A stretch of 57,115 nt of DNA, taken from positions 1-57,115 of the forward strand of contig CAYZEK010000002.1 of assembly GCA_964477805.1 (NCBI GenBank), read 5' to 3'. Positions 10,135 through 46,512 of this stretch are shown here, piece after piece. How positions within the stretch are numbered: the stretch's first letter is position 1; each line of letters begins with the position of its first letter. The notes below the pieces were generated by a model, which was not told where the DNA came from, ran no database searches, and saw only the letters and a program-made list of their open reading frames with translations. Source of the stretch: an uncultured Candidatus Saccharibacteria bacterium (GTDB lineage Bacteria > Patescibacteriota > Doudnabacteria > UBA920). The position numbers were made by a program, and so were the translations under genes.

Positions 10135-11748
10135 CTAGTGCAGAACAGACAACAAGCTTACGCCATTCATTTCTGGTGGTTTTTCCAACCCCATCAACTC
10201 TAGAATAGTTGGAGCGATATCAGAGACAACTCCAACTGGCACATGACCAGATAGTGATAGATAGTCACGGTCCTTTGGAGGGTCTATCTCAAATTCTTTG
10301 GCCACTAAGATAAAGGGCACTGGACTAGTAGAGTGTTCTTTATCTATTTCTCCAGTCTTTACATTTACCAAGTTCTCAATATTGCCATGATCAGCTGTGA
10401 TAATCAAAGCTGCCCCAACAGATAAAACTGCCTGCGCGATCTCGTGTAAAAACCTGTCTATGTATTGAACGGCCCTGATACCAGATTGTAGATTACCAGT
10501 ATGGCCGACCATGTCTGGATTTGCAAAATTTGCTAGATAAAAATTGAAGTCAGAATTTTTTATTTTGTCTATTAAAATTTCGGTTAATTCAGCGCCAGAC
10601 ATTTCTGGATGTAATGCATAATTTTTATTATTTTCTGGGCTAGCCACGATTTTTCTTTCTTCACCCTTAAAAGCTTCACTTGCACCGCCATTAAAGAAAG
10701 AGGTTACGTGTGCATACTTTTCACTTTCAGCAATGTGGAATTGTGTTAAACCATTTTGGGAAATGTAATCAGCGAGATTATTTTTTAAATTCATCGGAGG
10801 GAAAGCCACGTGCACTGGTAAGCCAAAAAAGTATTCCGACATAGTCACAAAAAACAAATTCGGGATAACATTATGTTTCTTTGGAATATCCATCAATTCT
10901 GGCTGAACGAATGCTTGAGTGATCTGGAGCGCCCGATCAGAACGAAAATTGAACATAATACAAGCATCATTTACTTCAACTTTTGCGACTGGATGCATTC
11001 CACCATGCCCCTCCTCACGAACGATTACGGCAGTTGGTGGAATCATCTCATCATAAACATTCTGGTTGTACGAATTCAACACTGCATCCTCTGCGCTATC
11101 GGCAGCTACCCCTATTCCGTTTACAATCGCCTGATAGGTCATTTCTGTCTGGTCCCAGTGATTCGCACGATCCATAGCGTAAAATCGACCTGAAATCGTT
11201 GCAATTTTACCAACACCGATCTCAGAAATTTTTCTATTAACTTTTTTTACAGTATCAAACGCTTCCTTCTCTCCAGTGTCACGTCCATCTGTAAACATAT
11301 GTACATAAACTTCTTTCACCCCTTGCTCCACTGCCAAGCCAAGTAATGCGTATAAATGATCTTCGCTACTATGAACACCGCCAGAACTAACTAACCCAAT
11401 CAAGTGTAACTTAGAATTATTTTTCTTAACATGCTCGCAAGCATCAATTAAAGCCTGATTCTTAAAAAATGATCGATCTTGAATCGCGGCATTAATGCGA
11501 GGGAGATCCTGACCAACGATCCTCCCAGCGCCAATATTCAAATGCCCAACCTCAGAATTACCAACTTCACCCCAAGGTAAACCAACCACGGGACCAGACG
11601 CTAAAATTGAAATTGTGGGATAAGTAGCCACCAAATGATCCAAAGATTTCGGTTCAGCTAAAGCAATCGCATTCCCGTGACTAAAAGAAGCAACACCAAA
11701 ACCATCCAAAATTACTAGTACGACCTTTTTGTACGGTGGAAAGTTCAT
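10135..11748 (-). CDS. gpmI: 2,3-bisphosphoglycerate-independent phosphoglycerate mutase
   Basis: VLVILDGFG, NSEVGHLNIGAGR, FTDGRDT, ANFANPDMVGHTG, ITADHGN motifs. Confidence 0.92.
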   Translation of the reverse strand: MNFPPYKKVVLVILDGFGVASFSHGNAIALAEPKSLDHLVATYPTISILASGPVVGLPWGEVGNSEVGHLNIGAGRIVGQDLPRINAAIQDRSFFKNQALIDACEHVKKNNSKLHLIGLVSSGGVHSSEDHLYALLGLAVEQGVKEVYVHMFTDGRDTGEKEAFDTVKKVNRKISEIGVGKIATISGRFYAMDRANHWDQTEMTYQAIVNGIGVAADSAEDAVLNSYNQNVYDEMIPPTAVIVREEGHGGMHPVAKVEVNDACIMFNFRSDRALQITQAFVQPELMDIPKKHNVIPNLFFVTMSEYFFGLPVHVAFPPMNLKNNLADYISQNGLTQFHIAESEKYAHVTSFFNGGASEAFKGEERKIVASPENNKNYALHPEMSGAELTEILIDKIKNSDFNFYLANFANPDMVGHTGNLQSGIRAVQYIDRFLHEIAQAVLSVGAALIITADHGNIENLVNVKTGEIDKEHSTSPVPFILVAKEFEIDPPKDRDYLSLSGHVPVGVVSDIAPTILELMGLEKPPEMNGVSLLSVLH

Positions 11749-11754
11749 TGTTGT

Positions 11755-13008
11755 TTACCTATCTAATTCAGATTCAATAGCCAAGAGACGATTATATTTT
11801 GCCAACCTTTCACCTCGGTTAAGACTGCCAGCTTTAATGTATTTTGCTCCCACAGCGACACTTAAATCAGCAATAAAGTCATCTAATGTTTCTCCACTCC
11901 TATGAGAAATGATTACTTCGTAACCATACTTCTGAGCTAATTTAATTGCTACCATTGTTTCGCTGACTGTCCCAATTTGATTCAGTTTGATCAAAACTGC
12001 ATTAGCAATTCCAGAAATAATTCCTGATTCAATTCGTTGAGTATTTGTCACAAATAAATCATCCCCTACTAAAGTTGTTTTATGGCCAAGTTCTTCGGTT
12101 AATTTTTGCCATCCCAAAAAATCATCTTCTGCACATCCATCCTCAATGATTTGTAATCCAAAAGCCTTGATCCATTGTTGATACAACCTGTACATACTAG
12201 CCGGTTTAAAATGCTTGCCATCACCTTTTAAGCTATAAATTTCTTTATTAGCATCAAAAAATTCACTGGCTGCTGCGTCTATCCCTAATGCAAAATCTTT
12301 GCCAACACTAAAACCTGCAGATTTAATCGCACTTGTTAAAACACGCAAAGCCTTTTTGTTCGAACCAATTTTGGGAGCAAAACCACCTTCATCGCCCACA
12401 CCAACACTTAGACCCTTTTTAATCAAAATACGTTTCAATTCGTGAATAACAGCAAAAGATTTTTGGATTTTATCAGAAAATTTCCCCTTAATAGGGATGA
12501 TAAAAAACTCCTGAATATCCAAACCAGAATCAGCATGCACGCCACCATTAATGACATTTAATAATGGGGTTGGCAAGGCAAGATGAGAAAAATTATATTG
12601 GGAAGCCAAATATTTGTACAAAGGTTTATTTGTTAACTTTGCCCCAAGTCTGGCACAAGCCAAAGATACTGACAAAATCGCATTGGCTCCTAATTTGGAT
12701 TTATCTGAGGTTTTATCTAAGTTCACCATTAATTCATCAATAGTCTTCAAATCAATCACTGACTTTCCTTTTAACAAACGTGCTATTACTGTATTTACGT
12801 TTTTACAAGCTCGTCTTACTCCTAAACCTGAATATCTATGTTTAATTCCATCTCTTAACTCCAAGGCTTCGTGAGTTCCAGTCGATGCGCCACTCGGCAC
12901 ACTGGCAATTGCACACACCAAACCTGACCACACTGTGGTTTCTACGGTTGGGTTACCACGACTATCCAAAATCTCCCTTGCTGTTATGCGAGTGATGATA
13001 TTTTTCAT
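11755..13008 (-). CDS. eno: Enolase
   Basis: AREILDSRGNPTVE, SGASTGTHEA, VGDDLFVTN, IKLNQIGT, SHRSGET motifs. Confidence 0.95.
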   Translation of the reverse strand: MKNIITRITAREILDSRGNPTVETTVWSGLVCAIASVPSGASTGTHEALELRDGIKHRYSGLGVRRACKNVNTVIARLLKGKSVIDLKTIDELMVNLDKTSDKSKLGANAILSVSLACARLGAKLTNKPLYKYLASQYNFSHLALPTPLLNVINGGVHADSGLDIQEFFIIPIKGKFSDKIQKSFAVIHELKRILIKKGLSVGVGDEGGFAPKIGSNKKALRVLTSAIKSAGFSVGKDFALGIDAAASEFFDANKEIYSLKGDGKHFKPASMYRLYQQWIKAFGLQIIEDGCAEDDFLGWQKLTEELGHKTTLVGDDLFVTNTQRIESGIISGIANAVLIKLNQIGTVSETMVAIKLAQKYGYEVIISHRSGETLDDFIADLSVAVGAKYIKAGSLNRGERLAKYNRLLAIESELDR

Positions 13009-13015
13009 TCTGATT

Positions 13016-14245
13016 TCATCTTTTTAAAGCTTCTAGCCCCGGCAATTTTGCCCCAGATAAATACTTCAACATTGCCCCTCCGCCAGTGGAAACATGATCA
13101 ATATATTCAAATTGATGTGCCTGACGGATAGCAGCAACGGTTTCACCACCACCAGCAACGCCAAAAGCTTTTCCGCTACTTACTGAACCAACAATTTTTG
13201 CCAAAGCCATAGTGCCTGTCCGAAATGGTTTTTTTTCAAAATATCCCAAAGGACCATTCCAGCAAATAGTCTTGGCTGATTTCAAAATTTTTGAATATTC
13301 TAAAATCGTTTTAGGGCCAATGTCACAAATCTTCTCCGTGGGTTTGATCTCATAACGGTTTTTCACAATGGCTGTTTCTTTTGGATTACTAGTGTCAAAT
13401 ACTGCCACATCTTTGGGCAACACCAATTTATCTTTAAAATTTTGTAGTAACTGCCAAGCTAATTGTTGACTTTCCTTCTCTATGACTGATTCACCTATTT
13501 CTAAACCTTCCGCTGCAAAAAATACATTAGCTAAACCGCCGCCAAGTAAAATATAATCGGCTTTTCTGCCCAAGACTTCTAACGTCTTAGCTTTGTCCGA
13601 AATTTTTATTCCCCCCATCATTAAGACAAATGGGTGTTGCGACTTTGTTAGTACATAATCTAAATTTTTGATCTCCTTTTCCAACACAGGGCCAACAAAG
13701 GCAGGAAGTTCCTGAGTGATTGCCACTATCGATGCCGCTGTTCTATGGTCAACGGCGAAAGCATCATTAACATAGACATCCCCCAAAGTAGCCAAAATCA
13801 TTGCAAAATCTTTGCGATTATTCTCTTCCCCTGGATAAAAACGCAAATTCTCTAAAACTGTTATATCTTTAGCTGACATCTCTTGAACAGCTTGCCGAAC
13901 ATTTTCTAGCTCGATATTTCCATTTACAAAGACAACATGCTTAATTGGATAAGTAACAGGTCGATCTTCAGTTTCAAGAAATTTTACTTTCAACAGTTCT
14001 GCCAGACGTTCCGCCATTGGTTTGAGTGATGCTTTTTTTACCCATCTACCATCTGGGCGACCTGTATGGGAAAGGATCACAATTTTAGCATTGTGCTTCT
14101 GTAAGAATTTTATCGTTGGTAAAATCTCTTGAATCCTAAAATCATCTAGCATCTTTCCTGACTCATCTATTTCCTCATTAAAATCAACACGTAGTAATAC
14201 GGTTTTATTTTTGATATCAGTTGATTTTAGGTATTTATAAGCCAT
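13016..14245 (-). CDS. pgk: Phosphoglycerate kinase
   Basis: LLRVDFN, ILSHTGRP, GGGLANVF, WNGPLGYFE, STGGGA motifs. Confidence 0.95.
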   Translation of the reverse strand: MAYKYLKSTDIKNKTVLLRVDFNEEIDESGKMLDDFRIQEILPTIKFLQKHNAKIVILSHTGRPDGRWVKKASLKPMAERLAELLKVKFLETEDRPVTYPIKHVVFVNGNIELENVRQAVQEMSAKDITVLENLRFYPGEENNRKDFAMILATLGDVYVNDAFAVDHRTAASIVAITQELPAFVGPVLEKEIKNLDYVLTKSQHPFVLMMGGIKISDKAKTLEVLGRKADYILLGGGLANVFFAAEGLEIGESVIEKESQQLAWQLLQNFKDKLVLPKDVAVFDTSNPKETAIVKNRYEIKPTEKICDIGPKTILEYSKILKSAKTICWNGPLGYFEKKPFRTGTMALAKIVGSVSSGKAFGVAGGGETVAAIRQAHQFEYIDHVSTGGGAMLKYLSGAKLPGLEALKR

Positions 14246-14276
14246 TTTTTATTTTAGGATTGACTACTATGCTTTG

Positions 14277-15311
14277 CTATTCCGTCAGACTTTTGCCAAC
14301 TAGAATAGTTTGTTCAACCAACCTATTAGAATACCCAAATTCATTGTCGTACCAAGCAATGACTTTCACAAAATCGCCATCTACAACCTGAGTCAAGGAT
14401 AAGTCCACCACGCAACTAGCTGGATTACCAATGATATCAGAAGACACCAATGGTTCATTACTAACGACTAGTTTATCTTTATATAATGGATGAGAACTCG
14501 CATCAATAAATGCTTGATTTACTTCTTCAACAGTGACTTTTTTCTTAAGGAGAACAGCGAAGTCTGAAAGACTGCCAACTGGAGTAGGTACCCGAAACGC
14601 AAGGCCATTGAATAAACCTTTCAATTCTGGCAAAACTTCTGTCGCAGAAATTGCTGCACCTGTAGAAGTCGGAATGATGTTTACCGCTGCAGCTCTTGCT
14701 CTACGCAGGTCATTACTCTTCCCACCAGGAGGTGGTCCATCTACTAAGTTCTGCTCGGCGGTATAGCTGTGTATAGTACTCATCATCATTTTATTGATTC
14801 CAAACTTGGAAAGTAATACCGCTGCAACAGGAGTTATGCAATTAGTAGTGCAGGATGCATTACTAATAATTGATTGTCCTTTGTATTGATCTTCATTCGC
14901 AGCGAGCACAATCGTCGAAGTTAGCCCTTCATCTTTCGCAGGAGCAGAGATGATGACTCGTTTTGCACCAGCTTCTAAATGTGCGCTAGCTTTCTCACTA
15001 TCTGTAAATCGTCCAGTACTCTCAATTACAACCTCAGCACCAAGTTTTGCCCAAGGCAAAAGCTTTGGATCTTTTTCAGCAAATACTGGATATTTTTTTT
15101 CGCCAATGATAACATGATTCTCGTCAAACGAAACCTCTCGATTAAAACGACCATAGTTACTATCATACTTTAGTAGATGCGCCAAAACCTCTGGACTGGT
15201 TAAATCATTAATCCCAACTATTTCTAATTCTGGTTTTTCTAAAGCAATTTTAAAAGCCTGTCGACCAATTCGACCAAAGCCATTAATGCCAACTTTAACA
15301 ATATGTGACAT
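14277..15311 (-). CDS. gap: Glyceraldehyde-3-phosphate dehydrogenase
   Basis: GINGFGRIGR, active-site SNASCTTNC, WYDNEFGYS. Confidence 0.95.
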   Translation of the reverse strand: MSHIVKVGINGFGRIGRQAFKIALEKPELEIVGINDLTSPEVLAHLLKYDSNYGRFNREVSFDENHVIIGEKKYPVFAEKDPKLLPWAKLGAEVVIESTGRFTDSEKASAHLEAGAKRVIISAPAKDEGLTSTIVLAANEDQYKGQSIISNASCTTNCITPVAAVLLSKFGINKMMMSTIHSYTAEQNLVDGPPPGGKSNDLRRARAAAVNIIPTSTGAAISATEVLPELKGLFNGLAFRVPTPVGSLSDFAVLLKKKVTVEEVNQAFIDASSHPLYKDKLVVSNEPLVSSDIIGNPASCVVDLSLTQVVDGDFVKVIAWYDNEFGYSNRLVEQTILVGKSLTE

Positions 15312-21610: not shown

Positions 21611-22294
21611 TTAAAGCGCAATTATTTTATTAAAATCATCTGCCAATAAGCTAGCGCCACCTATTAACAATCCTGCAATGTGTGGTTGTGCCAAAAAACC
21701 AATGGCATTGGACCCATTAACACTCCCTCCATACAAAACGCGCTTTACACCATATTTTGTACTGATAAATAATGCAACCTGTTCCGCATGATCAGGAGTT
21801 GCTGGGTTTTTAGAACCTATTGCCCATACAGGTTCGTATGCAACTACAACTTTACTAGAATCAATTTCATCTAAGCTTCTTTTTAGTTGTTCCCCTACCA
21901 CATCCATCACCTCAAGCTCGTCCTCTTGTACGGTTGTCCCAAAACCGACACAAAGTATGGGCGTAATTTTATACTCCAATAAAGATTTTATCTTGGCATT
22001 TATCAGCTCATCAGTCTCACCCATCGCGCGACGTTCACTATGCCCAACAATACAGTACTTAACACCCATGCTCGCCAACTGGGCAGGAGAAATCTCTCCG
22101 GTATAGGCACCTTTAATGTGCGGTGAACAATCCTGTGCCCCAACATGTGGATATTCAATACTTTCCAAAAAAGGCATTGGTGGACAAATTACGACATCAT
22201 TTGTGGTGGAAACTTCAATTTTGGACGCCAAAGCCACTGCTTCGGTAACAGTCATTGGATTCAGTTTCCAGTTTCCTACAATTAATTTACGCAT
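21611..22294 (-). CDS. tpiA: Triosephosphate isomerase
   Basis: GNWKLN, IVGHSERR, AYEPVWAIG, YGGSV motifs. Confidence 0.92.
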   Translation of the reverse strand: MRKLIVGNWKLNPMTVTEAVALASKIEVSTTNDVVICPPMPFLESIEYPHVGAQDCSPHIKGAYTGEISPAQLASMGVKYCIVGHSERRAMGETDELINAKIKSLLEYKITPILCVGFGTTVQEDELEVMDVVGEQLKRSLDEIDSSKVVVAYEPVWAIGSKNPATPDHAEQVALFISTKYGVKRVLYGGSVNGSNAIGFLAQPHIAGLLIGGASLLADDFNKIIAL

Positions 22295-28426: not shown

Positions 28427-29098
28427 CTAACGTTTAAATACCACAAGCTTATACCCAACGAAGTTCCAAATTAACGAAAACGCAGTTGCGAGTATTTTAG
28501 CAACATTTTTAATCGTATCAACGTTAACGTAATCCTGTAATCCAGGAGTGATAAATTTAGTAGCGATGACAACAATGGTACTATTTATTGCCAAGCCAAT
28601 CAAACTGATAATTAAGAAACTGGTAAATTGCGTACCAGCCCCTTGACCAGCTCCAAATGACAACTGAAACGCATTCCATAGAAGCAGTTCAGTAATAATA
28701 AAAGCCACTAGAATCATCAAAAAGTAAATATTTGAAGCGTCATATGCGGCGCCAATGACGACACCAGCAAAAGCCGCGAAACCCAAACCACCTACCATTA
28801 TTAAACGCAAAGCATTTTGGAATAAACTCACACCACTACCTTCGGAAAAGGTCCACGCACGATTCCAAACATAACTTTGAATTATTGCAGCGCTAAAACT
28901 AATGATATTAAGCATTCCCAAGGTCAGCCCAGAAGTTACATCAAACGACTTTGTGACAAAATTAAGAATAACAAAATCTAATGCAGTATTAAGACTACCG
29001 ATAGCGGCAAATCGTAACAGTTGAATAATCACGGGTCTTGAACGGAGTATTGTTGTAATACGACCATTCAACGAGTTAGGTGCCATTGTTTCTATCAC
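28427..29098 (-). CDS. GtrA-like polytopic membrane protein
   Basis: RFAAIGSLNTALDFVILNF N-terminal signature, multiple TMs, WNFVGYKLVVF C-terminal signature; GTG start. Confidence 0.7.
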   Translation of the reverse strand: MIETMAPNSLNGRITTILRSRPVIIQLLRFAAIGSLNTALDFVILNFVTKSFDVTSGLTLGMLNIISFSAAIIQSYVWNRAWTFSEGSGVSLFQNALRLIMVGGLGFAAFAGVVIGAAYDASNIYFLMILVAFIITELLLWNAFQLSFGAGQGAGTQFTSFLIISLIGLAINSTIVVIATKFITPGLQDYVNVDTIKNVAKILATAFSLIWNFVGYKLVVFKR

Positions 29099-32833: not shown

Positions 32834-32862
32834 TTGACAAAATCTTATAAATTTTGTATAAT
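32834..32862 (+). promoter_or_regulatory. Consensus sigma-70-type promoter TTGACA-17-TATAAT (TTGACAAAATC class)
   Basis: ttgacaaaatcttataaattttgtataat; about 137-nt leader to ATG 33006. Confidence 0.7.
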
Positions 32863-33005: not shown

Positions 33006-33953
33006 ATGCGTTTACTGAAAATTTCAGGATATGTGTTTGTGCTCTTCATCTTTTTGATGATGAGCATGATCACTAGCTTTGGGCAAGAAACAACCAAAGC
33101 TACAACCGCAACCACGGCCGCCTGCGCCAAAACCGAGTTGCCCACAAGGCAACTACGAACATCCAAGATCGCTAAAGCAAAGCGCGTTAGGCATAAACGC
33201 CCACGCCGTCAAAAAGCAACAGCACAGACGACTCGGGTGATTTATCTGCCCGCACCGACGCCAAAACCGCCAGTTTTAGCAACCAACGCTGATTACAGCG
33301 ACATGGTTGTCAACGCTGGGAACGAAGGAAAACAAACTGGCAAAATCAAACTTGCGAGCGGTAACGATGCAGAAGATGCGGGAACGTATCTGAACGCATT
33401 GGCTAGCCCGAATTTGCAAGCGTGGTTCGCTGGTATGGAATTGCACGTTTTTTCACCCAACGGCGGTGACGGCCGAGTAATCATTTCCGACAAAAACGGC
33501 AAGGTTCTAGATGTCGTTAATGTCTCTGGCGAAAGGCTGGCAACTGTCATAGCGATGGAAAACAACATCGCTGACAACGCCAAATCCAGCGCCGCGACGC
33601 GAGACATGATCTCATCACTTTGGTGGATCGTGCTAGTCGGATTAGCGCTGATCGTGACTTTGTTGATCCTGAGTTACATTAGGCTAAACATCCTCAAAAT
33701 GATCGAGGCTGCAACCTACCAAATTGGAAGCAGGTTAAGTCGGACCAATGAAATGCTGAAGGATCTTCATTCTGAGACGAACAAAATTCGTTATAAGACT
33801 GATGATCTTGCCAGCGACGTTGAGAAGATCATGGCGCACTACGGTATTCATCGTAAGGATCCCAGCCCCATCCAAGCACCAATCGAGACACCCATCATTG
33901 ACGCCGAAGTGGTGGACGACGATGACCCGGACCACCCGGTGGTTGCGGGATAA
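33006..33953 (+). CDS. Hypothetical exported bitopic protein (signal peptide, basic stretch, ectodomain, TM, coiled-coil tail)
   Basis: AGGAGG Shine-Dalgarno 7 nt upstream; signal-like N-terminus; KAKRVRHKRPRRQK stretch; TM WWIVLVGLALIVTLLILSYI; acidic C-terminus. Confidence 0.55.
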   Translation: MRLLKISGYVFVLFIFLMMSMITSFGQETTKATTATTAACAKTELPTRQLRTSKIAKAKRVRHKRPRRQKATAQTTRVIYLPAPTPKPPVLATNADYSDMVVNAGNEGKQTGKIKLASGNDAEDAGTYLNALASPNLQAWFAGMELHVFSPNGGDGRVIISDKNGKVLDVVNVSGERLATVIAMENNIADNAKSSAATRDMISSLWWIVLVGLALIVTLLILSYIRLNILKMIEAATYQIGSRLSRTNEMLKDLHSETNKIRYKTDDLASDVEKIMAHYGIHRKDPSPIQAPIETPIIDAEVVDDDDPDHPVVAG

Positions 33954-37211: not shown

Positions 37212-38759
37212 CTACAAAACCCGAAAAATAGCCAGTCCGCCTGCATCAAACCCTAGCTCAAAAAAATCACTATGAACATCATTGGAAAGAAAATTATAAA
37301 TATTTGGGTTTCTAGCTACGTCAACAAAGATAAACTTAGCTCTTAAATCTTGCTTTACCAATTTATGAACAGCTTCGATAGAACCCCAATTCTCAACATT
37401 ATCATCGGCTATCTTCCGCCAATCCCAATACAAATTGGGGTCATAAATGTACATGAAAGTTGGATCTAGCCCCAGCATGTAATAATTTTTGTCATTCCAA
37501 TAAAAGAGTTGCGCCGACTGATCCCATTGCGTGTTTAAAACCAAATCCTTAGGGGCACTGTTTTTTATTAACCAACTAGAGGCATTCTGGTAACGATTAT
37601 TCGCTTCGCCAGATGACAAAGATAAATACACTTTTTGGACATTATAAAAGCCAATTAAAACAACGATGACTACAATCAACATTCCTGCGACTGTAACTTG
37701 CCAAGCAGAGACCATAAGACTTTTACATTTTCCCCATGACAATTGCCGAACATACGGACTTAAAGTAATTGCTGTTGCCAGAACAGTAAACGGCGTCCAA
37801 TACTCAATAAACCGTCGATGCCACAAAGTCAGGACGAAAAAACCAATCGCAATAGTCTGCATCCAAATTGACAGCCAATTCAGTTTGCGATTGAATATTT
37901 TTTTTGCTTCTACCACCAGCGCAATTAACCAACCAGTTAAAACCAAAATATTTGATTCCAAAAACCAATCAAATCTAAACGGCAACCACTCATTGCCAGC
38001 AGGCACTACCCTGCCCGCGCCAAGCCCAGTTTGAAATATTTGATCATATAACAATACTAAAAGATTTTGACTATGTGGATGGATAAGTAACGCAACAACA
38101 ATCCCAAAAATAGAAGAAAGTAATGGCCAAATATCCACTTTCCGTTCTGAGATCATTATTGCCATTGAGTATGCGATCAAAAATAACGGCACACAAACAA
38201 AGCCACCATATGTCCAAGCAAAAATTCCAGACAGAACGCCAATTAGAGCTAATAATTTTTTGTTTTTTTGCTGATGGTATTGATAAGTAATTAAAGTTAT
38301 CAAGCATAGTAAAGCTAGCGAAATAGTGTTGGCTTTCACCACATTAATGCGAAAAATAAAATCAACCGATCCGAGCAATGTTAGCAATAGCCAAAATGGT
38401 TTACCGGGAACCTGCATTTTAGACATCAACAACCAAAAACAAACAAAAAATATTGTACTAAACAGAATGATTGATACAGGTAATAACCCAACTGTATTAA
38501 ATGGCACTAACAACCAATGATATAGATAATGTTGATCTGCGTACCCCTCGCTCCAAGTTGTATAAGCAAGCCATGGAAAAGTATCCCCCAGCCTTCCTTC
38601 TGATACAAGCTGAGAAGCTTTGGCATGATAAAACCCATCTGGATCGGAGAACTTTCCCCAAACAGAAATTTGTAATCCTGTGATTACTAATACTGCTAAT
38701 GCAAGGCTAATCCAAGTTGTTTTGGTCGACTTGATAAATTTTAACATCTGAGTTTTCAT
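37212..38759 (-). CDS. Polytopic membrane protein, GT-C-fold glycosyltransferase-like
   Basis: More than 10 predicted TMs; DPDGFYH acidic motif in the first loop resembles the DxD loop of the ArnT/PMT/STT3-type fold; assignment is weak. Confidence 0.5.
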   Translation of the reverse strand: MKTQMLKFIKSTKTTWISLALAVLVITGLQISVWGKFSDPDGFYHAKASQLVSEGRLGDTFPWLAYTTWSEGYADQHYLYHWLLVPFNTVGLLPVSIILFSTIFFVCFWLLMSKMQVPGKPFWLLLTLLGSVDFIFRINVVKANTISLALLCLITLITYQYHQQKNKKLLALIGVLSGIFAWTYGGFVCVPLFLIAYSMAIMISERKVDIWPLLSSIFGIVVALLIHPHSQNLLVLLYDQIFQTGLGAGRVVPAGNEWLPFRFDWFLESNILVLTGWLIALVVEAKKIFNRKLNWLSIWMQTIAIGFFVLTLWHRRFIEYWTPFTVLATAITLSPYVRQLSWGKCKSLMVSAWQVTVAGMLIVVIVVLIGFYNVQKVYLSLSSGEANNRYQNASSWLIKNSAPKDLVLNTQWDQSAQLFYWNDKNYYMLGLDPTFMYIYDPNLYWDWRKIADDNVENWGSIEAVHKLVKQDLRAKFIFVDVARNPNIYNFLSNDVHSDFFELGFDAGGLAIFRVL

Positions 38760-40305
38760 AAACTACTCTTAAATAATGGCGGGCTGTTGTATCTAAACCA
38801 CCCAATAAACGAACATCGGCATCTTCAAAAATGTAATCAATATCTTCCTGTCTGAGAAAAAACTTCAAAGGGTCGCTGTTATTAATCTTACTGCCAAGCA
38901 TCCCTGTTACTATCTCAGATTTAAGACCATAATCCAAAGTCTGATCACCAGTACCCACAAACACCTTCCGCCCTGCAATTCCAGGGATAATATTACTGGA
39001 AACAAGACTAGAAATCACAATACTCTTAGGCTCAGTGTTATGTTTCAACCAGATTGCTCCAGCATAAATGCCCTCGTCTAAATAAAATGGTGGTTCTCCT
39101 GCTTTAAAAAATTGCATATCCTGATAAAGACGCCACACATTAGTCAATGCGAGCAAACTAATCAAACTCAAAACGACGAAATGCTTTAGCAATTTATTTT
39201 TCAATCCTGATTCTTGCAAAAACCAAACCAATCCCATAGAGGCTAAAATCGCTATGGGAATATGCAACCCCTCACTAAACTTCCTCTGAAATCTGACAAG
39301 TAACGGGAAGTAAAGTAAAAAAGGTATTACTAATATCCAGATCAACAGGAAAAGAATTCTTTGGATATCTTTGTTTATACTCATATTGCTAATGCCGACA
39401 AAAGCAAAGACTAACAAAAACCCATAACCAGACAAAAAATAATACCATGCATACGATGGGACATTAGTTTGTATTGTAGCCCAAACCCCTAACACAGGAT
39501 TAATATTTAGGATATTCACCTGCCATAAAGCAAAAGGCAAAACTAGTATGATCAGATACAAATAATTTCTGAGCCAAAAATAATTTTTCGTCTTAAATGT
39601 TTGTACCAACACATATACGAATAATACTGATGTCACAATAGCCAAATCATATGGGTGTATGATTACCAATACCCCTAATAACAACGCAGGAAGCAAAACA
39701 ACCATCCTCCGTGAGGAGTGAAATAAATTTGTAGATATATGGAAAATTAATAAAATTAAAGTTAGCGAAATAAGATTAAGTGGCGACATATACAAACTTA
39801 AAAATGTGTTTGATTCTACCATCCACATATCAGTAGACAATGGAGACAAAAACAGACCCACTCCAGACGAAACAATTGTAATTACAAAAGTCAACTGCCT
39901 TGCGGTAACATTTTTTATAAAATCAGAGATAAACAAATACAGACTGGACAAAAAAAGCATGCCGACGAACATTTTCCCAACATGATAAATCACAATATTA
40001 GACAAAGTACTGAAATGCCCCAAAACTCCTAAAACATAAAAAAATGGATGAAAAAATAAAGCTGATTGAAGCTCAGTACTATACAGATTTACAAAGAAAA
40101 AATTTCCTTGCCTAGCTTGTTCAAACCATGCTAAGTAAGTATAAGTATCATAGTGACTAATAGTCGTCATCCCTGTAAAAAAACTTCCAGCAGGTGTGTG
40201 TAACCACCCATACAGATACGGTAGATTGATAAGACTAACAAACAAAACTGATACAACGACGACCCAGACCCATTCACTTCTACTAATTTTTTCTAGAGAA
40301 ATCAT
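38707..40305 (-). CDS. Polytopic membrane protein with C-terminal soluble domain, GT-C-like
   Basis: More than 10 predicted TMs; HYDTYTYLAWFEQ loop after TM1; about 130-aa C-terminal non-membrane domain; overlaps the next gene by 53 nt. Confidence 0.5.
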   Translation of the reverse strand: MISLEKISRSEWVWVVVVSVLFVSLINLPYLYGWLHTPAGSFFTGMTTISHYDTYTYLAWFEQARQGNFFFVNLYSTELQSALFFHPFFYVLGVLGHFSTLSNIVIYHVGKMFVGMLFLSSLYLFISDFIKNVTARQLTFVITIVSSGVGLFLSPLSTDMWMVESNTFLSLYMSPLNLISLTLILLIFHISTNLFHSSRRMVVLLPALLLGVLVIIHPYDLAIVTSVLFVYVLVQTFKTKNYFWLRNYLYLIILVLPFALWQVNILNINPVLGVWATIQTNVPSYAWYYFLSGYGFLLVFAFVGISNMSINKDIQRILFLLIWILVIPFLLYFPLLVRFQRKFSEGLHIPIAILASMGLVWFLQESGLKNKLLKHFVVLSLISLLALTNVWRLYQDMQFFKAGEPPFYLDEGIYAGAIWLKHNTEPKSIVISSLVSSNIIPGIAGRKVFVGTGDQTLDYGLKSEIVTGMLGSKINNSDPLKFFLRQEDIDYIFEDADVRLLGGLDTTARHYLRVVYENSDVKIYQVDQNNLD

Positions 40306-40327: not shown

Positions 40328-40365
40328 AAAAAAACAGAGTCGATCCTTTTTGGAATCGACTCTGT
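40328..40365 (-). terminator. Rho-independent terminator ending the three-gene operon
   Basis: 11-bp stem acagagtcgat/atcgactctgt; the minus strand is followed by T7. Confidence 0.85.
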
Positions 40366-40379
40366 AAACTCTGAACATT

Positions 40380-41906
40380 TCAGCTAATCCTCCTTGTTCG
40401 AACAGTAAACGCACCATCACCCTGATAACCTTTTAAGCTATCAATGGTGCGGTACGTAATCTCGCCACTTTCTGTAGCTACGATACGTTGTGGTCCGCAA
40501 ATCAAAAATCTTTTACTCGACTTTGAACCGATCCACATTTCTAACCCACCCACATTTTTAGCGAATGGACTGTCAACTGCCGTATCTGCATAACCAGTAG
40601 TTTCTCCGCATGAGCCAACAACTGGTCCATCCGACCGCGCTTGTACTGTCCCCGAAGGTTCGACTTCCACGACATCTCCTTTGTTAACACTAAAGGTCTG
40701 TACTCCTGTCGAATTCTTCTGCGGGACACGCACCACAGACTCTTTAACGGCGCTCGCCTTTATTGGCGCGGGCGCCGTCGGAACAGCTGAAGCGGTTGGC
40801 GAGTGCGAATTGCTTGGGCTAGAATTCAGACTTTGATCTGAAGCAGAAGCAAACGGATTCTTGCCATCGTTTAAGTCCTTTGAGAACTTATTGATCGCCT
40901 CGTTCTTTTGAGCGAAGTTCACAATAGGCCCTAAGGTTAACAGACCGATAAAAAGTACCGTCCCTGCAAAAGCGACAACACCCCAACGTAATTCAAAGGC
41001 GTCTTTACCGGCGTCTTCATCAGTTGCCTTACCCTTCTTCAAGGAAACACCACTAAAAGCAATAGCAGCTACCAAAATGAAGAATAAACCCCAGATCAAC
41101 AGACCGGTGTTGTCGTCCGCCCCCCAATTTACCCTTGCCAAGAGTTTATAAAACCCAAGGTGGTAAATTAAGATCGCAGCGACAAGATACATCAGAAATG
41201 TCTGGACTTTTTCCAGCCAAAATGGTGGTCGTTTCCAGCCATAGATCATGAAGAATAGCCCAGCGATGCAGAGCAAAGCAATGATTAAACTCCCCAGATC
41301 ATGGCTCAGCCACTTCATGGTTAGCAATATAACATTGATCACCATGACATAAGCAAGAAACGCCATAATCCCAAACAGCAATTCTTTCGCCTTTGCCTCA
41401 AAAGCTTTTTCTTCTCGTGCTTCTTTCAAATCACTCAAGAATTTTTCTTCCTTATCAAAAGCCTCTCCGACTAAGTCTGGAATTGCCACCGCTGCAAGAT
41501 GAGCCACAACATTTATTGCGCTCAACACAACCCTTTCAATGCCTGCAACGACACCAGTGACAACCCCAACCTTCGTCGTTACGAGGAGGTAGTACGCCAC
41601 TGATACCAACATCAGAACCAACGGCACCAGGCGGAAGCCATAGTACCCTTCGGTGCAAACGCCGGTATTTGCGTCGCAAAAAGTCCGCGTTGTAACGACT
41701 AACGCTACCAACGCAATCAAATTAACTACCAGCGCAAAGCGCAGTAGTGTCCAGGTTTCAAGAAAATGCTTCGCCCCTTTAGACCAAGTCCAAATGGCAG
41801 CATTCTCAACCTCCAACACTCCCCACTTTATGATGGTTTCCACATGGTCCATAGCATCTGTACCAGAACCCTTCGACGACACCTTACCCTTACCCTTACT
41901 TGCCAT
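40380..41906 (-). CDS. 8-TM membrane protein with a C-terminal beta domain resembling PA-IL/LecA-type lectins
   Basis: GAGGAG Shine-Dalgarno. The last 118 aa (40383-40736) show the pattern GDVVEV..G......GP..G....GGLEMWIG....G.ITY.....GY.GDGAF.V, comparable by eye to LecA. Confidence 0.55.
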   Translation of the reverse strand: MASKGKGKVSSKGSGTDAMDHVETIIKWGVLEVENAAIWTWSKGAKHFLETWTLLRFALVVNLIALVALVVTTRTFCDANTGVCTEGYYGFRLVPLVLMLVSVAYYLLVTTKVGVVTGVVAGIERVVLSAINVVAHLAAVAIPDLVGEAFDKEEKFLSDLKEAREEKAFEAKAKELLFGIMAFLAYVMVINVILLTMKWLSHDLGSLIIALLCIAGLFFMIYGWKRPPFWLEKVQTFLMYLVAAILIYHLGFYKLLARVNWGADDNTGLLIWGLFFILVAAIAFSGVSLKKGKATDEDAGKDAFELRWGVVAFAGTVLFIGLLTLGPIVNFAQKNEAINKFSKDLNDGKNPFASASDQSLNSSPSNSHSPTASAVPTAPAPIKASAVKESVVRVPQKNSTGVQTFSVNKGDVVEVEPSGTVQARSDGPVVGSCGETTGYADTAVDSPFAKNVGGLEMWIGSKSSKRFLICGPQRIVATESGEITYRTIDSLKGYQGDGAFTVRTRRIS

Positions 41907-41917
41907 TTTTTTCTCCT

Positions 41918-42604
41918 CTAGAATATCCTAAACCCTAAAATCAGGGCTATGGTTGGGTGACGATCACGCCAAGTTGCTGGTGCAACTGACTGAACCGATT
42001 GAGCTTGTTGAAGCTTCTTGACCCGTAAACGAGCCCTACGCTCTTTCTGCAATACGCGATCACGCAGCTCCGCGTACTTCGCCATAATCTCCAAAGGTGT
42101 TATTAACCCTTGAATAGCCATTTCCAGCTGAGACGGATCAAATATGCCCATCCCATCAAGCGAGTCCATTACTTCCTTCTGCGTGCGCAAGTTGGCCAAA
42201 AAAGCCAACAGCATCAAACGATGCTTGCGATCACGCTCCGAGACATAGGCTTGCCGGAACTTCGCCTTATGCTTAGGCGAAAGTTGCTTGAAAACATTGA
42301 GCAACCAAAAACCTTTACGATCTTCAATTATCTCACTGTCCACGAGGCTTGCGATGTCGCAACCAAGCCTCATCTCATCCTTCATTCCAAAGGATGTTTC
42401 CCACGCCCCAAGGGCTTCATCCAAGGCCTCAGTCTGTTTGCCCTCTCGCATCAATGTTTCAATGCGATCAGCAGTCTTTCGCTCTTCCGGAGAAGAGCCT
42501 TTGCCCTTGAAAAATTTGGTTACATACCCCAAAACCTGCGAAGCGTCCAAAGCGACGTCCGCGATTTCGAACAGGTCCCTTAATCCTACAAAGCCTACTG
42601 CCAT
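41918..42604 (-). CDS. Hypothetical helical 228-aa protein
   Basis: GAGGTG Shine-Dalgarno; Arg/Lys-rich coiled segment near the C-terminus; no motif recognised. Confidence 0.5.
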   Translation of the reverse strand: MAVGFVGLRDLFEIADVALDASQVLGYVTKFFKGKGSSPEERKTADRIETLMREGKQTEALDEALGAWETSFGMKDEMRLGCDIASLVDSEIIEDRKGFWLLNVFKQLSPKHKAKFRQAYVSERDRKHRLMLLAFLANLRTQKEVMDSLDGMGIFDPSQLEMAIQGLITPLEIMAKYAELRDRVLQKERRARLRVKKLQQAQSVQSVAPATWRDRHPTIALILGFRIF

Positions 42605-42612
42605 AATTCACC

Positions 42613-43347
42613 TCAAAATTCCTTCCGCAATCTTTTGATTACGGGTTTGTTAGCTAAGTACAAAAAAGAAATTTGTACATCGCTAATTGCCTTTGACCTA
42701 ACAAGCAGGAGCAAACCTTTAACAGGAATGACAAGCTTGTGCTTCTTTACCGCTCTAGCAATTTCTGCATCACTTTCATAATCAGACAGTGATACATTCT
42801 TGTTGGCGGTGAAAAAAACTTCCCCAGCAACAGAATTACCTTTTTTGTCCAAACACTGAACTCGGAAAGGATAGTCAATACCGCGAGCGGTAATAACTCG
42901 ATCCTCTTCTCCGAGCAATGTCTCGACGACCAAAGGGTCTTTCTTGGCAGAAGACCCAACTTTACCAGCCCCGCCAATACCATGAACTTCTTGCAAAGCT
43001 TTTAGCTCTGCTTTGTTAAAGTCCTTTTTGACCCTGGCGCCATGTGGAGCCACTACACTAATTGTGGTGCAGTTCGCTGGTAAGCTTTCGATCAAAACTT
43101 CAGATGTGGCCATACCGTTGCTTTGCGTAAACAAATCAAAGGCGAGTCCATCTTTGTCTAACAATCCCTCGAGCGGAAGCTCAGCCGGATTGCGCTTATT
43201 CCCAGCAAACGCAAATAACTTAGCATCGTTCGTAGCAATATTATTCTCATAATAATGCGCAGTGACGTGCAAAGATTTGTTGTCTGCTCCAAACGAAATA
43301 AACAAGTCAATCTTCTCGGAAACACGACTCGTTTTTGCTATGCTCAT
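42613..43347 (-). CDS. Hypothetical beta-rich 244-aa protein, first gene of the operon
   Basis: AGGAGGG Shine-Dalgarno 8 nt upstream of the ATG; no TM; no motif recognised. Confidence 0.55.
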   Translation of the reverse strand: MSIAKTSRVSEKIDLFISFGADNKSLHVTAHYYENNIATNDAKLFAFAGNKRNPAELPLEGLLDKDGLAFDLFTQSNGMATSEVLIESLPANCTTISVVAPHGARVKKDFNKAELKALQEVHGIGGAGKVGSSAKKDPLVVETLLGEEDRVITARGIDYPFRVQCLDKKGNSVAGEVFFTANKNVSLSDYESDAEIARAVKKHKLVIPVKGLLLLVRSKAISDVQISFLYLANKPVIKRLRKEF

Positions 43348-43406
43348 CTCAATATTCCCTCCTATTTTTTAGTTTTTAATGTGCAATTTTAGACAAAATC
43401 TTGCAA

Positions 43407-43452
43407 TTTTGCCAAAAAGAATCACACCTTAATATAAACCTTTTTGGCAAAA
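43407..43452 (-). promoter_or_regulatory. 13-bp perfect inverted repeat (ttttgccaaaaag, 20 nt, ctttttggcaaaa) in the operon leader
   Basis: Read directly; lies between the promoter and the Shine-Dalgarno; tgcaatttt is also repeated at 43382 and 43402. Confidence 0.6.
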
Positions 43453-43476
43453 CCAACACTATGTTCCTAATTTGCG

Positions 43477-43505
43477 ATTATATCAGATTTCAATGATTTT
43501 GTCAA
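43477..43505 (-). promoter_or_regulatory. Consensus promoter TTGACA-17-TATAAT with TGa extension (TTGACAAAATC class)
   Basis: Minus strand reads ttgacaaaatcattgaaatctgatataat; about 120-nt leader to ATG 43347. Confidence 0.7.
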
Positions 43506-43516
43506 GCATGGTTGCT

Positions 43517-43543
43517 CAAAAAAACCTCATAGATAAGAGGTTT
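43517..43543 (-). terminator. Rho-independent terminator after the ATPase gene
   Basis: Stem aaacctc/gaggttt; the minus strand is followed by a T-run; 25 nt past the stop. Confidence 0.75.
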
Positions 43544-43567: not shown

Positions 43568-46114
43568 TTAGAGCGTCTTCTCTGTCGCACCCTTCCCTGC
43601 CGACATCATGTCAGCCACTCGACTAGCTGTGAGTATTTCCTCTTCCACCTCTAGGCGAGACCGGCCGAATTTTAGCCTAGAAAGCTGCCTGATAGCAGAC
43701 GCTGTACTAGCTTGCTCAGCTGTTGGTTTTAATAACGGATATGTTGCCATATTAAATGGCTTGCTTGCTGTTCCGTTAATCATCAATTTTACAAAGGCAT
43801 TAAATCGGTCAACATTTAGCAAATCAAACTCATTAAACACTGGTGCAAATTCCTTTGCCATTGTTTCCGCATCCTCAACCCCAATCCGAAAACTTATCAT
43901 TGAACCAGCGTTACCAAATACTGCATCGCGCAAATCACTACTCCCTGCTCCATGAGCTCCAGCGCCTTGCGCTAATTGTGCCAAAAACTGATGACCGATA
44001 ATCAAGTTCAATCTATATTTACGTGCCTCACTCAAAATACTGGAAAATGCATCGGTGATAAAGTTTTGGAACTCATCGACATACAAATAAAAGTCTCGGC
44101 GCTGATCTTCAGGAATATCTGCGCGTGACATTGCTGCCATCTGAATTTTGCTTACCAGTATCAACCCGAGTAATTTCGCATTCATTTCTCCGACTTTACC
44201 TTTAGCCAAATTTACTAGCAAGATTTTACCGTTGTCCATGATCTCACGGAAGTTAAAGGAACTTTTACTTTGTCCGACAATGTTTCGCATGGTTGCATTT
44301 TCAACGAATCGTCCCACCTTAGAAACTAAATAACCAAGCATTTCAGATTTATGAAAGTCCGAGGTTTTTGCCATCTCTTTTTCCCAAAATGCCCGCACCA
44401 CCGGATCAGTCACTTTCCCAATTTTATATTTCTGAAATTCAGTATCGGTAAAAATTCTCGGGATATCCACAATAGTACCAGGGTGTTCATTATCTGCCAT
44501 TAACGTGAGCATTGCGTTACGCATATTATGTTCGAACATTGGTCCGAGCATAGCAGGATCTGTAACCAATTTATAAAAAATTGAAATCATTTCTTGTACA
44601 GCAAAATCTTTTTGGTCTTCCGAAAATACTTCCAACATATTTAACCCCATAGGTCTTTCTACGTCAAACGGTTCAAACAAAATGACATCTTCAGCTCGAT
44701 TTTTTGGAATGTGGGGCAAGATGTCTTCAATATAATCACCATGTGGATCAATTACACACAACCCTTCGCCATTTTGAATATCCTGAACAGACATATATTT
44801 CATCAACTCAGTTTTACCAACACCAGTGCGACCCAAAATATACATGTGGCGACGACGATCATCACGACTGGCATGAATTTTTGTTTCTACACCCCGATAG
44901 ATATTACGACCTAACAACACCCCGTCAGTTGGGGTATTTACAGGCGCTGGAGCTTTCTTAGATTGTAACCATTTGATATTAGGGGTTTCCAAAAATGGCG
45001 TTGGCAAGTGCCATAGACTAGCCAATTCTTCGGTATTCAAAATTGTCTTTCGGCCATAACGTCGGTAAATCCGAAACATAAAATCTTTAGCGATATCCCC
45101 AGCCTTACGTTTCTTTACTTTGAAACCATTGAATGGAGGCATGTTGTATTGCAAAAATGAAGACACAATATTACTCAAATTCACAGATGCAACCCCAGGC
45201 TGAGTTGATGAAGCAATAATTCGAATATTAGTTCTAAACCCTGGACGACTAGCTTTTTCTTCAAAGCGCTTAACCATCTCCTGTTGCATTGGCGTCAAAT
45301 TGATTGGGCTGTTCAAGCCAGACAAGTCCTTATGTGCATCTGTTGGTGTTGCCTTACCCAATACTCCATCTCTCACCATACCAAATGTCTCACCAGCCAT
45401 CCGAGCCCCTACACCTTTTACAACAGTGTTAGGGTTTTTCCCTTGTTGAATTTCTAAAGCCATATGATGTGGTTTATTTTGCCAATGATGCCCCGCTGGA
45501 TATAAAATAAACTGAATGGCCGCACCTTCATCCTGACCCAACTTTGACATTGCATTTGTCAAAGAATTTAGAGGATCAGTTTCCATATTTTTGTAAGTCC
45601 GAATTGGAAACATATATGGGCGATTCACTTGTAATTCAGCAGCCGCAATTTGCCCGCCTTTTTGAAATGGGTTATAACCATGCACGATATCAATATGAGC
45701 GTGCGGATATTGTGCCTGTAATTGCTTCTCAACCAACCCGCGGAGATGATTGGGACAATTGATGTAAAAAGAAATCTTCTTATCAGTACAAGCTATCTCA
45801 AAACTGAGATAATCTTTCGGTTGAAAAAACCAATTACTGTGACTTATTTCTGATAAAGATGTAAACAACTGTTCTGCAACTGCAATGAGATTCTTTTTTG
45901 ACTCTTCATTATTTTGAACATTGGCATTCTTATCATCTGAACCTTCTTTAGGCATTTGCACTTCTAAAAATACCCAGTTTTTTGTGCGGGGTAAAATAAT
46001 TCTGGAATAATACCAATGCCGGTGAATATAATATATTAAAAACGCCAAAAAGACCGTTATAAGAACGGTCAATAAGATGCTAGTAAGAACAATTGTACTT
46101 AATTCAAACGGCAT
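43568..46114 (-). CDS. Membrane-anchored FtsK/HerA-superfamily P-loop ATPase, type IV secretion coupling-protein-like (VirD4/TraD/TraG type)
   Basis: N-terminal TM; about 390-aa unassigned domain; Walker A GRTGVGKT (44810-44833); VIDPHGDY; Walker B FYLYVDEFQNF (44060-44089); ARKYRLNLIIGHQFLAQL and GNAGSMISFRIG..DAE typical of the coupling-protein C-terminal module. Confidence 0.78.
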   Translation of the reverse strand: MPFELSTIVLTSILLTVLITVFLAFLIYYIHRHWYYSRIILPRTKNWVFLEVQMPKEGSDDKNANVQNNEESKKNLIAVAEQLFTSLSEISHSNWFFQPKDYLSFEIACTDKKISFYINCPNHLRGLVEKQLQAQYPHAHIDIVHGYNPFQKGGQIAAAELQVNRPYMFPIRTYKNMETDPLNSLTNAMSKLGQDEGAAIQFILYPAGHHWQNKPHHMALEIQQGKNPNTVVKGVGARMAGETFGMVRDGVLGKATPTDAHKDLSGLNSPINLTPMQQEMVKRFEEKASRPGFRTNIRIIASSTQPGVASVNLSNIVSSFLQYNMPPFNGFKVKKRKAGDIAKDFMFRIYRRYGRKTILNTEELASLWHLPTPFLETPNIKWLQSKKAPAPVNTPTDGVLLGRNIYRGVETKIHASRDDRRRHMYILGRTGVGKTELMKYMSVQDIQNGEGLCVIDPHGDYIEDILPHIPKNRAEDVILFEPFDVERPMGLNMLEVFSEDQKDFAVQEMISIFYKLVTDPAMLGPMFEHNMRNAMLTLMADNEHPGTIVDIPRIFTDTEFQKYKIGKVTDPVVRAFWEKEMAKTSDFHKSEMLGYLVSKVGRFVENATMRNIVGQSKSSFNFREIMDNGKILLVNLAKGKVGEMNAKLLGLILVSKIQMAAMSRADIPEDQRRDFYLYVDEFQNFITDAFSSILSEARKYRLNLIIGHQFLAQLAQGAGAHGAGSSDLRDAVFGNAGSMISFRIGVEDAETMAKEFAPVFNEFDLLNVDRFNAFVKLMINGTASKPFNMATYPLLKPTAEQASTASAIRQLSRLKFGRSRLEVEEEILTASRVADMMSAGKGATEKTL

Positions 46115-46119
46115 TTGAT

Positions 46120-46512
46120 TTAAAGGTTATCAGGAGTTTGTGATACTCCCAAACCCAGTTCCTGCATATCATGCAAATCAACTGAGTTATCACCATTTAA
46201 AAAACTTAAAAGTGTTTCTTGAATTTCTTGAGTCTTTGCCAGCGCAACTTCTGGGGGTATTGATTTTTGAGCTTGTTCTGTGGTCGGCACCTCAAAAGCA
46301 GACACTCCCTCTGTTTGCCCGAGCTTGTCCACCTCATCAAATTTCGTACTGCCTAAATATTGTAGCTCTTTTTGATCACTGAATAACTCTGAATTTGGTT
46401 CAGTAAATTCTGATATATTTCCTGAGGCATTCTTTAAAATCTCTTCCGAGCCACCATGCTCCAACTGTTGTGTACGATGAATTTTAGCTCCTATTTCTTT
46501 TTCTTGGGGCAT
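46120..46512 (-). CDS. Hypothetical acidic 130-aa protein co-transcribed with the ATPase
   Basis: Stop lies 5 nt before the ATPase ATG; low-complexity and acidic; no motif recognised. Confidence 0.45.
   Translation of the reverse strand: MPQEKEIGAKIHRTQQLEHGGSEEILKNASGNISEFTEPNSELFSDQKELQYLGSTKFDEVDKLGQTEGVSAFEVPTTEQAQKSIPPEVALAKTQEIQETLLSFLNGDNSVDLHDMQELGLGVSQTPDNL

Follow-up and report, generated by a model that had tools for sequence, protein, structure and literature searches.

Contig CAYZEK010000002.1 of an uncultured Candidatus Saccharibacteria bacterium, of which a 57-kb stretch (the window) was analysed, carries a self-contained operon of three genes, A, B and C. The last of them encodes a polytopic membrane protein with a C-terminal head modelled in the fold of the lectin LecA (PA-IL). 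Genes B and C form the invariant core of the operon and A is an optional member. The operon is restricted to one lineage, Candidatus Doudnabacteria, in which its proteins diverge very fast. Our tentative reading is that the trio constitutes a cell-surface glycan receptor or an adhesin module. Strands and coordinates are those of the whole window, and L-numbers denote related loci from other assemblies, which were seeded with relatives of protein C or of the ATPase encoded next to the operon.

Operon structure and the LecA-like head of protein C

Gene A (42613-43347, minus strand, 244 aa), gene B (41918-42604, minus strand, 228 aa) and gene C (40380-41906, minus strand, 508 aa) are separated by gaps of 8 nt (A/B) and 11 nt (B/C). 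Each has its own Shine-Dalgarno sequence, AGGAGG before A, GAGGTG before B and GAGGAG before C. The sigma-70-type promoter TTGACA-17-TATAAT (43477-43505, minus strand) matches at 12 of 12 positions and carries a TG extension. The 57-kb window contains only two perfect sites of this kind, compared with none in 100 shuffles, and the trio promoter is kept, with both hexamers and the spacing, in L008, the sole close relative, whose protein A is 67% identical. Within the leader of about 120 nt lies a perfect 13-nt inverted repeat, TTTTGCCAAAAAG and CTTTTTGGCAAAA separated by 20 nt (43407-43452, minus strand), which forms a stable hairpin (RNA fold z-score -3.35), is mostly kept in sequence in L008 and could act as an attenuator or operator. 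An Rfam scan of the leader and the operon gave no match above chance. The repeat overlaps a second promoter-like site, TTGGCA-18-TAAAAT (43415-43386).

Gene C is followed by an intrinsic terminator (40334-40365, minus strand) with a 13-pair stem and a T7 run. In L089, L092, L095 and L009, too, gene C runs straight into a strong terminator, and this element is seen in five genera. The ATPase gene upstream of the trio ends in a hairpin and T-run of its own (43515-43543, minus strand; inverted repeat 43522-43531 / 43534-43543, then TTTTTTT) that is kept in L008, and hence the trio is a cleanly delimited, self-contained unit. The initial annotation had described such a unit, from a perfect promoter and a leader through three closely spaced genes, each with a Shine-Dalgarno site, to a terminator, and all these elements were recovered.

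The C-terminal head of C (residues 391-508; 40383-40736, minus strand) was modelled with AlphaFold from an alignment of 35 sequences as a beta-sandwich with a predicted local distance difference test (pLDDT) value of 96. The best Foldseek match in the PDB was LecA from Pseudomonas aeruginosa (2vxj/1l7l), with a template modelling score (TM-score) of 0.85, a root-mean-square deviation of 1.8 Å and 24% identity. The top 11 matches were all LecA, PllA or EclA (TM-score 0.74-0.86) with nothing significant below them, and the comparison of the model with viral structures also returned nothing significant. A profile of the head searched against the PDB likewise retrieved members of the PA-IL family (PllA, EclA, LecA) as its five best matches, at marginal E-values of 0.009-0.047. 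The Pfam family PF07828 (PA-IL) was detected in 7 of 65 homologues scanned (best 2e-6); the 508-aa protein itself gave no match at E<=0.1. The resemblance of the last 118 residues to PA-IL/LecA had initially been proposed from residue spacing, and the AlphaFold model together with its superposition in Foldseek indicates that this assignment was correct: the last ~118 residues are predicted to have the LecA fold. Of the Ca2+ and galactose ligands of LecA (Y36, H50, Q53, D100, T104, N107 and N108), D100 has a counterpart in C (TID). The wider head subfamily mostly keeps DGN.G at the N107/N108 loop and has a near-invariant motif of its own, D..VDSPF..NVGGLE. Judging from the modelled fold, the head may bind sugars.

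An exhaustive HMMER search with C among 1.84 billion representatives yielded 64 relatives. The last ~118 residues are shared by 53 of the search matches, most of them in other architectures, and the membrane domain by about 12 distant relatives. In nearly all complete proteins among the 53 carriers, the head domain is placed after an N-terminal signal-anchor or a single ToxR-like transmembrane (TM) helix. Since the domain comes after a membrane helix in these relatives, its family is used outside the cytoplasm. A Trans_reg_C domain was found in 11 of the 65 scanned homologues and a Ser/Thr protein kinase domain in one; C itself has no Trans_reg_C match in Pfam and contains eight helices, unlike the single-TM ToxR-like regulators. 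The full sequence of C had no match in Pfam (E<=0.1), NCBIfam, PHROGs, PADLOC or the PDB, a word-indexed homologue search returned nothing for it, and no relatives were found in the phage collection.

Residues 1-330 of C (40917-41906, minus strand) comprise, according to hydropathy and loop charges, an N-terminal helix and an 8-helix membrane domain. They are followed by a linker or stalk (residues 331-390; 40737-40916, minus strand) whose translation is Ser/Pro/Ala/Thr-rich from about residue 350. Eight hydrophobic segments are seen in the family-averaged hydropathy profile and AlphaFold helices cover the same segments, with TM2 and TM3 merged in one helix, in line with the roughly eight TM helices given in the initial annotation. 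The AlphaFold model of this domain is of low confidence (pLDDT 64.5), and its best Foldseek match had an E-value of 0.8 and a TM-score of ~0.15, with no VirB6/TrwI among the 50 matches listed for this low-confidence model. The channel-like character that the initial annotation ascribed to C thus found no support in the model. In the family alignment W230 is invariant, R112, A185 and P198 are near-invariant, and a charged loop of ~40 residues between TM3 and TM4 is conserved. From counts of Lys and Arg, this loop and the one preceding TM8 are assigned to the inside and the tail that follows TM8 to the outside. The loop charges, the architectures of the relatives and the Ser/Pro-rich linker together make an extracytoplasmic head likely, which bears on the topology question attached to the original description of the domain. 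Within the family of C some members have a LecA-like head, others a different one, and a few have none.

Proteins A and B and the distribution of the operon

Protein B has no TM segment and no signal peptide and is apparently a helical cytoplasmic protein, a prediction with which the family alignments agree. Members of the family are about 210-240 aa long and have membrane-seeking ends; they carry a conserved LDxAQ motif in the N-terminal part and a W...F-R/K-I tail at the C-terminus. The homologue of L049 ends in a true TM helix. A hidden Markov model of the B family matches the open reading frame (ORF) directly 5' of C in L089, L090, L092, L095, L096, L097, L098, L012 and L058, and in a second, more divergent subfamily of C a helical protein occupies the B position. 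Pairing of B and C is observed in every locus with upstream sequence except for three divergent ones (L023, L063 and L035), in which the ORF 5' of C is not demonstrable as a B homologue. Homology between the two subfamilies at the B position was not significant by hhalign, and A-B fusions, sought in L023 and L063 as Rosetta-stone evidence, gave nothing significant either. No match to B was found in Pfam, NCBIfam, PHROGs or PADLOC or by the word-indexed homologue search, and relaxed scans of the individual B-family members were equally blank. The B-family profile retrieved from the PDB only designer pentatricopeptide repeats, which were rejected as spurious summed matches through a single GK..EA..L hairpin motif.

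Protein A also lacks TM segments and a signal peptide and is predicted to be beta-rich, again in agreement with the family alignments. The word-indexed search of 5.8 billion clusters returned one homologue with 67% identity, and profile iteration tied A to the positionally equivalent ORFs of L009, L012, L058, L049 and L013. In relaxed scans of the individual members most relatives of A contain an N-terminal cold-shock domain. The corresponding oligonucleotide/oligosaccharide-binding fold with its KGFGFI-type motif is not present in the family alignment in A of the window nor in the L008 protein, both of which begin past the point where the cold-shock domain of the relatives ends. No match to A was obtained in Pfam, NCBIfam, PHROGs, PADLOC or the PDB. 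A is present in many loci and missing in L092 and L096; it is therefore an optional member of the operon, and the invariant core consists of B and C.

The operon is found again at about 20 related loci, all of them from Candidatus Doudnabacteria. The co-occurrence that the initial annotation had proposed to look for is thus observed as the same arrangement in many loci, with A optional. Its statement that no described system has this architecture also holds, as Pfam, NCBIfam, PHROGs, PADLOC and the PDB are blank for A, for B and for the TM part of C. Literature searches on DUF8128, a domain of the neighbouring ATPase, and on Doudnabacteria and Patescibacteria with lectin or LecA returned nothing on the trio operon.

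The proteins of the operon diverge far more than their genomic surroundings. Between the window and the compared loci SecY is 78-90% and the ATPase 69-84% identical (the latter where a full-length match was obtained), compared with 22-32% for C and 26-31% for B (66% in L008); for A, L008 apart (67%), there is either no detectable identity or at most 45% along part of the protein. The polytopic proteins D532 and E515 (D and E), encoded 3' of C (37212-40305, minus strand), are 25-57% identical. Within the species (L001, L004 and L005 versus the window), B has 93% nucleotide identity (29 synonymous and 14 non-synonymous differences), while one synonymous site is all that varies in C and D. SecY varies by 2%, and in A and E the non-synonymous changes outnumber the synonymous ones. 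This mosaic variation suggests a recent recombination or sweep of the C-D segment. The sequence of the window itself was found in seven contigs of different samples, with C identical at 100%.

The adjacent ATPase and the variable island

The window is a chromosomal segment of a Doudnabacteria-type bacterium of the Candidate Phyla Radiation (CPR) and contains a ribosomal-protein operon, secY, glycolysis genes, mreB and dnaX. The glycolysis genes form a run on one strand encoding GAPDH, PGK, enolase, iPGM and TIM (10135-15311 and 21611-22294, minus strand). MreB, RecJ, a Y-family polymerase, an HtrA-like protease and a GAF-PAS histidine kinase are further products of this ordinary chromosomal content.

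At the end of the ribosomal-protein operon, directly after secY, lies the gene of an ATPase of 848 aa (43568-46114, minus strand) for which Pfam and NCBIfam indicate an N-terminal DUF8128 and a TrwB/VirD4-like domain. It is always preceded by a gene for a small acidic protein (46120-46512, minus strand) that is hypervariable and about 105-130 aa long in the relatives. In the genome collection 542 relatives of the ATPase were confirmed, and the best 80 loci of the 542 (L009-L088) were used. Relatives with 58-84% identity occur in metagenome-assembled genomes labelled Candidatus Doudnabacteria, Patescibacteria or, generically, Saccharibacteria. The ATPase also matches phrog_5156 over its full length and hypothetical proteins of Bacillus-group phages at 19-24% identity. 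In Patescibacteria only 148 of 5,713 VirD4-like genes were located near virB4, and most are orphans of no assigned role that have perhaps been exapted (PMC12102498).

The functional coupling of trio and ATPase that the initial annotation had envisaged was not borne out, and the link between the two is positional only. The ATPase gene directly precedes (A)-B-C in the window and in L089, L092, L096, L009 and L021, and other genes intervene in L012, L013, L014, L049 and L058. In L090/L091 a tubulin-like gene, not the ATPase, precedes the trio. This gene encodes in L090 a 641-aa protein of the tubulin/FtsZ family (L090:1549-3474) with a 474-aa protein before it and A-B-C directly after. Doudnabacteria have a conserved backbone of SecY, small acidic protein and ATPase whether or not they carry the trio, and the ATPase gene has its own terminator. 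In addition, the ATPase of L001 contains an in-frame stop just before the Walker A motif (HMYI*GRTGVGKT; L001:7070-7075, about 44830 in the window) next to an intact trio; the stop may reflect a pseudogene or a sequencing error (ERZ795041, 5x coverage). Among the window ORFs scanned, i.e. those on either side of ~15.6-21.6 kb (a part with six ORFs of at least 120 aa, none above 340 aa), no Pfam or NCBIfam match to VirB3, VirB4, VirB6, VirB8 or a relaxase was found. A coupling of ATPase and trio is conceivable but finds no support here.

The trio lies at one end of a variable island (about 29.9-43.5 kb) between the ATPase and a block encoding a 217-aa protein, GtrA (28427-29098) and DnaX. Parts of the island are raised in GC content (0.44-0.47 versus a background of about 0.36-0.41), and its content varies between related genomes; more distant Doudnabacteria encode after the ATPase a small protein and one of ~205 aa, then GtrA and DnaX. 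The islands of relatives encode Thr/Pro-rich proteins with signal peptides, DUF5663 proteins and giant proteins, and the variable island looks like an envelope island. A recurrent block 3' of C in L089, L090, L092, L093, L095 and L096 encodes a small TM protein of 130-153 aa, a Thr/Pro-rich protein of 188-219 aa with a signal peptide, a DUF5663 protein of 105-130 aa and a giant protein of 1342-1770 aa. In the window its place is taken by F884, a protein with three Gly-rich hydrophobic segments and a weak RAMP match, and a 110-aa protein. The second perfect TTGACA-17-TATAAT site of the window (32834-32862, plus strand) belongs to the same island. It begins with the same TTGACAAAATC as the trio promoter and precedes a gene for a 315-aa, Thr-rich and C-terminally anchored protein with a signal peptide (33006-33953).

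For D and E no family or PDB match was detectable, the E-family profile being blank against the PDB and Pfam. An E-family homologue is fused to an N-terminal glycosyltransferase of family 2 (GT2; L013:20596-22542, 2.3e-24), and the first-loop motif DPDGFYH of E presumably resembles the catalytic loops of glycosyltransferases of the C fold (GT-C). Together with GtrA, D/E and the GT2 fusion suggest that surface glycosylation follows a three-component pathway whose GT-C-like enzymes form an undescribed family.

Possible functions and comparison with known systems

As a cell-surface receptor or adhesin module, the trio would be built around C, an integral membrane protein of ~8 helices whose LecA-fold sandwich would be held outside the cell by a ~60-residue linker after the last helix. 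The ligand of the head would be a carbohydrate, either of a host cell or of the bacterium's own glycosylated envelope. B would bind to the cytoplasmic face of C, at the conserved charged loop and the N-terminal helix, and A would serve as an optional cytoplasmic accessory. The consensus promoter and the strong ribosome-binding sites suggest that the proteins are abundant, and such abundance would be expected of an adhesin or anchor more than of a rare sensor. Moreover, a variable head on a conserved base together with extreme divergence is typical of a surface-exposed recognition protein. The modelled LecA fold, the extracytoplasmic use of the head family, the pairing of B with C and the envelope-related neighbours (D/E, GtrA and, in relatives, signal-peptide Thr/Pro-rich and giant proteins) also favour this reading. 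Several observations weigh against this interpretation. The Ca/galactose site of LecA is kept only in part, H50 being replaced by Y and Q53 by T, and the N107/N108 loop being shortened to GYQ-GDG(AF). Several members of the C family are headless or carry another head, so that the conserved function would sit in the TM domain and B, and a base of eight helices with conserved loop residues exceeds the needs of an anchor. Eight helices also put the Lys-rich N-terminus on the side of the head, contrary to the positive-inside rule. Finally, A and B lack signal peptides yet evolve as fast as C, which surface exposure leaves unexplained.

Four other functions were considered. It is somewhat unlikely that C works with D and E, which would be GT-C-like and fed by a GT2 enzyme and GtrA, and that the head holds or positions their glycan product, e.g. 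to anchor a glycosylated surface layer. D/E-type genes do lie 3' of C in the window and in L089, L090, L092, L095, L096, L009, L010, L012, L013 and L058, and the near identity of C and D between strains whose SecY is 2% apart suggests that the two travel together. The GT2 fusion of the E family, the GtrA gene of the window and the DPDGFYH motif of E, with its presumed likeness to GT-C loops, are also consistent with this function. On the other hand, the strong terminator between C and D is present in five genera, C occurs without adjacent D/E in L021, L022 and L093, and the glycosyltransferase nature of D/E is itself inferred since they match no family or PDB entry. We consider unlikely a signalling device in which the head would sense an external glycan and the 8-helix domain would relay the signal to B and from there to A, whose cold-shock domain would bind RNA or DNA. 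Its appeal lies in the recurrence of this head subfamily as the outer part of 11 ToxR-like regulators and of one Ser/Thr kinase, in the conserved cytoplasmic loops of C and in the cold-shock domains of A-family proteins. However, A is absent in L092 and L096, A of the window lacks the cold-shock domain, Pfam, NCBIfam and relaxed family scans revealed no recognisable signalling domain in A, B or C, and a promoter of consensus strength is unusual for a sensor.

In a contact-dependent translocon, C would be a VirB6-like conduit whose adhesin head attaches to glycans of a partner cell, A would handle single-stranded nucleic acid where it bears a cold-shock domain, B would act as an adaptor and the ATPase, resembling a type IV coupling protein (T4CP), would supply the energy to move nucleic acid or protein across. 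This arrangement appears improbable, even though the ATPase gene stands directly 5' of (A)-B-C in the window and five related loci, cold-shock domains as in the A family are typical single-strand binders, and VirD4-like T4CPs of Patescibacteria are mostly orphans far from virB4 (PMC12102498). The backbone of SecY, acidic protein and ATPase is kept in Doudnabacteria without the trio; the two are separate transcription units, interrupted in some loci by other genes and with a tubulin-like gene in place of the ATPase in L090/L091; and the trio is intact in L001 despite the ATPase stop, which at 5x coverage could be a sequencing error. VirB4, VirB8 and a relaxase were not found among the window ORFs scanned, the low-confidence model of the membrane domain has no fold match to VirB6, and the ATPase evolves far slower than the trio. 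Very improbable, in our judgement, is a role in anti-phage defence or another conflict, where an arms race would drive the fast evolution. The very fast divergence of A, B and C, the GC-raised variable island and the mosaic strain variation would be compatible with it, but PADLOC is blank for all three proteins, which contain no nuclease, nucleoside triphosphatase or toxin domain; C has no phage or plasmid relatives; and the syntenic position is stable across genera instead of being scattered among defence islands.

CPR bacteria, or Patescibacteria, are thought to live attached to host cells, and few of their attachment or recognition factors are known. To our knowledge none has been reported for Doudnabacteria, a group without a cultured member. 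The trio, if it is a surface module as tentatively preferred here, offers a concrete and testable recognition candidate, with a confidently modelled head on a lineage-specific membrane base and an obligate partner. Should the head bind a host glycan, it could help to identify the hosts of Doudnabacteria; should it not, the operon would be one more lineage-specific CPR cluster. If a translocon were formed, these metabolically dependent bacteria would have a route of exchange with their hosts. In any case the operon marks a hypervariable envelope island beside a widely conserved orphan T4CP-like ATPase.

With the VirB6 and VirD4 proteins of monoderm-type type IV secretion systems (PMC12102498), the locus shares a polytopic protein of 400-500 aa beside a TrwB/VirD4-like ATPase. 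It differs from them in that VirB4, VirB8, VirB3 and a relaxase are not among the scanned window ORFs, in the separate transcription units and in the lack of similarity to VirB6, both in sequence and, as far as the low-confidence model can be compared, in fold. The three-component glycosylation systems, composed of GtrA, a GtrB-type GT2 enzyme and a GT-C enzyme, resemble the neighbours GtrA and D/E, including the one GT2 fusion, and not the trio; D/E differ from them in matching no GT-C family by sequence. We know of no counterpart of A, B or C in these systems.

The closest relatives of the head, with 35-63% identity, are regulators of the ToxR-like architecture Trans_reg_C-TM-PA-IL-like and small signal-anchored PA-IL-like proteins. 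These relatives combine a single TM helix with an output domain that binds DNA or is a kinase, whereas C has eight helices and no output domain. LecA itself (PF07828; also PllA of Photorhabdus and the N-terminal domain of EclA) matches the modelled beta-sandwich over the whole head and shares the spacing GD..I...A.G, GP.G, G.L...IG and an acidic residue at D100 followed by GY..G.F.V. LecA is a tetramer of free, soluble chains of about 121 aa; here, in contrast, the domain sits as a head at the C-terminus of a 508-aa polytopic membrane protein. In addition, the Asn107/Asn108 Ca loop of LecA is shortened in C and the motif D..VDSPF..NVGGLE of the C-head subfamily is missing from LecA. The head adds a divergent new member to a known lectin fold, and the membrane domain that bears it, like A and B, belongs to no described family.

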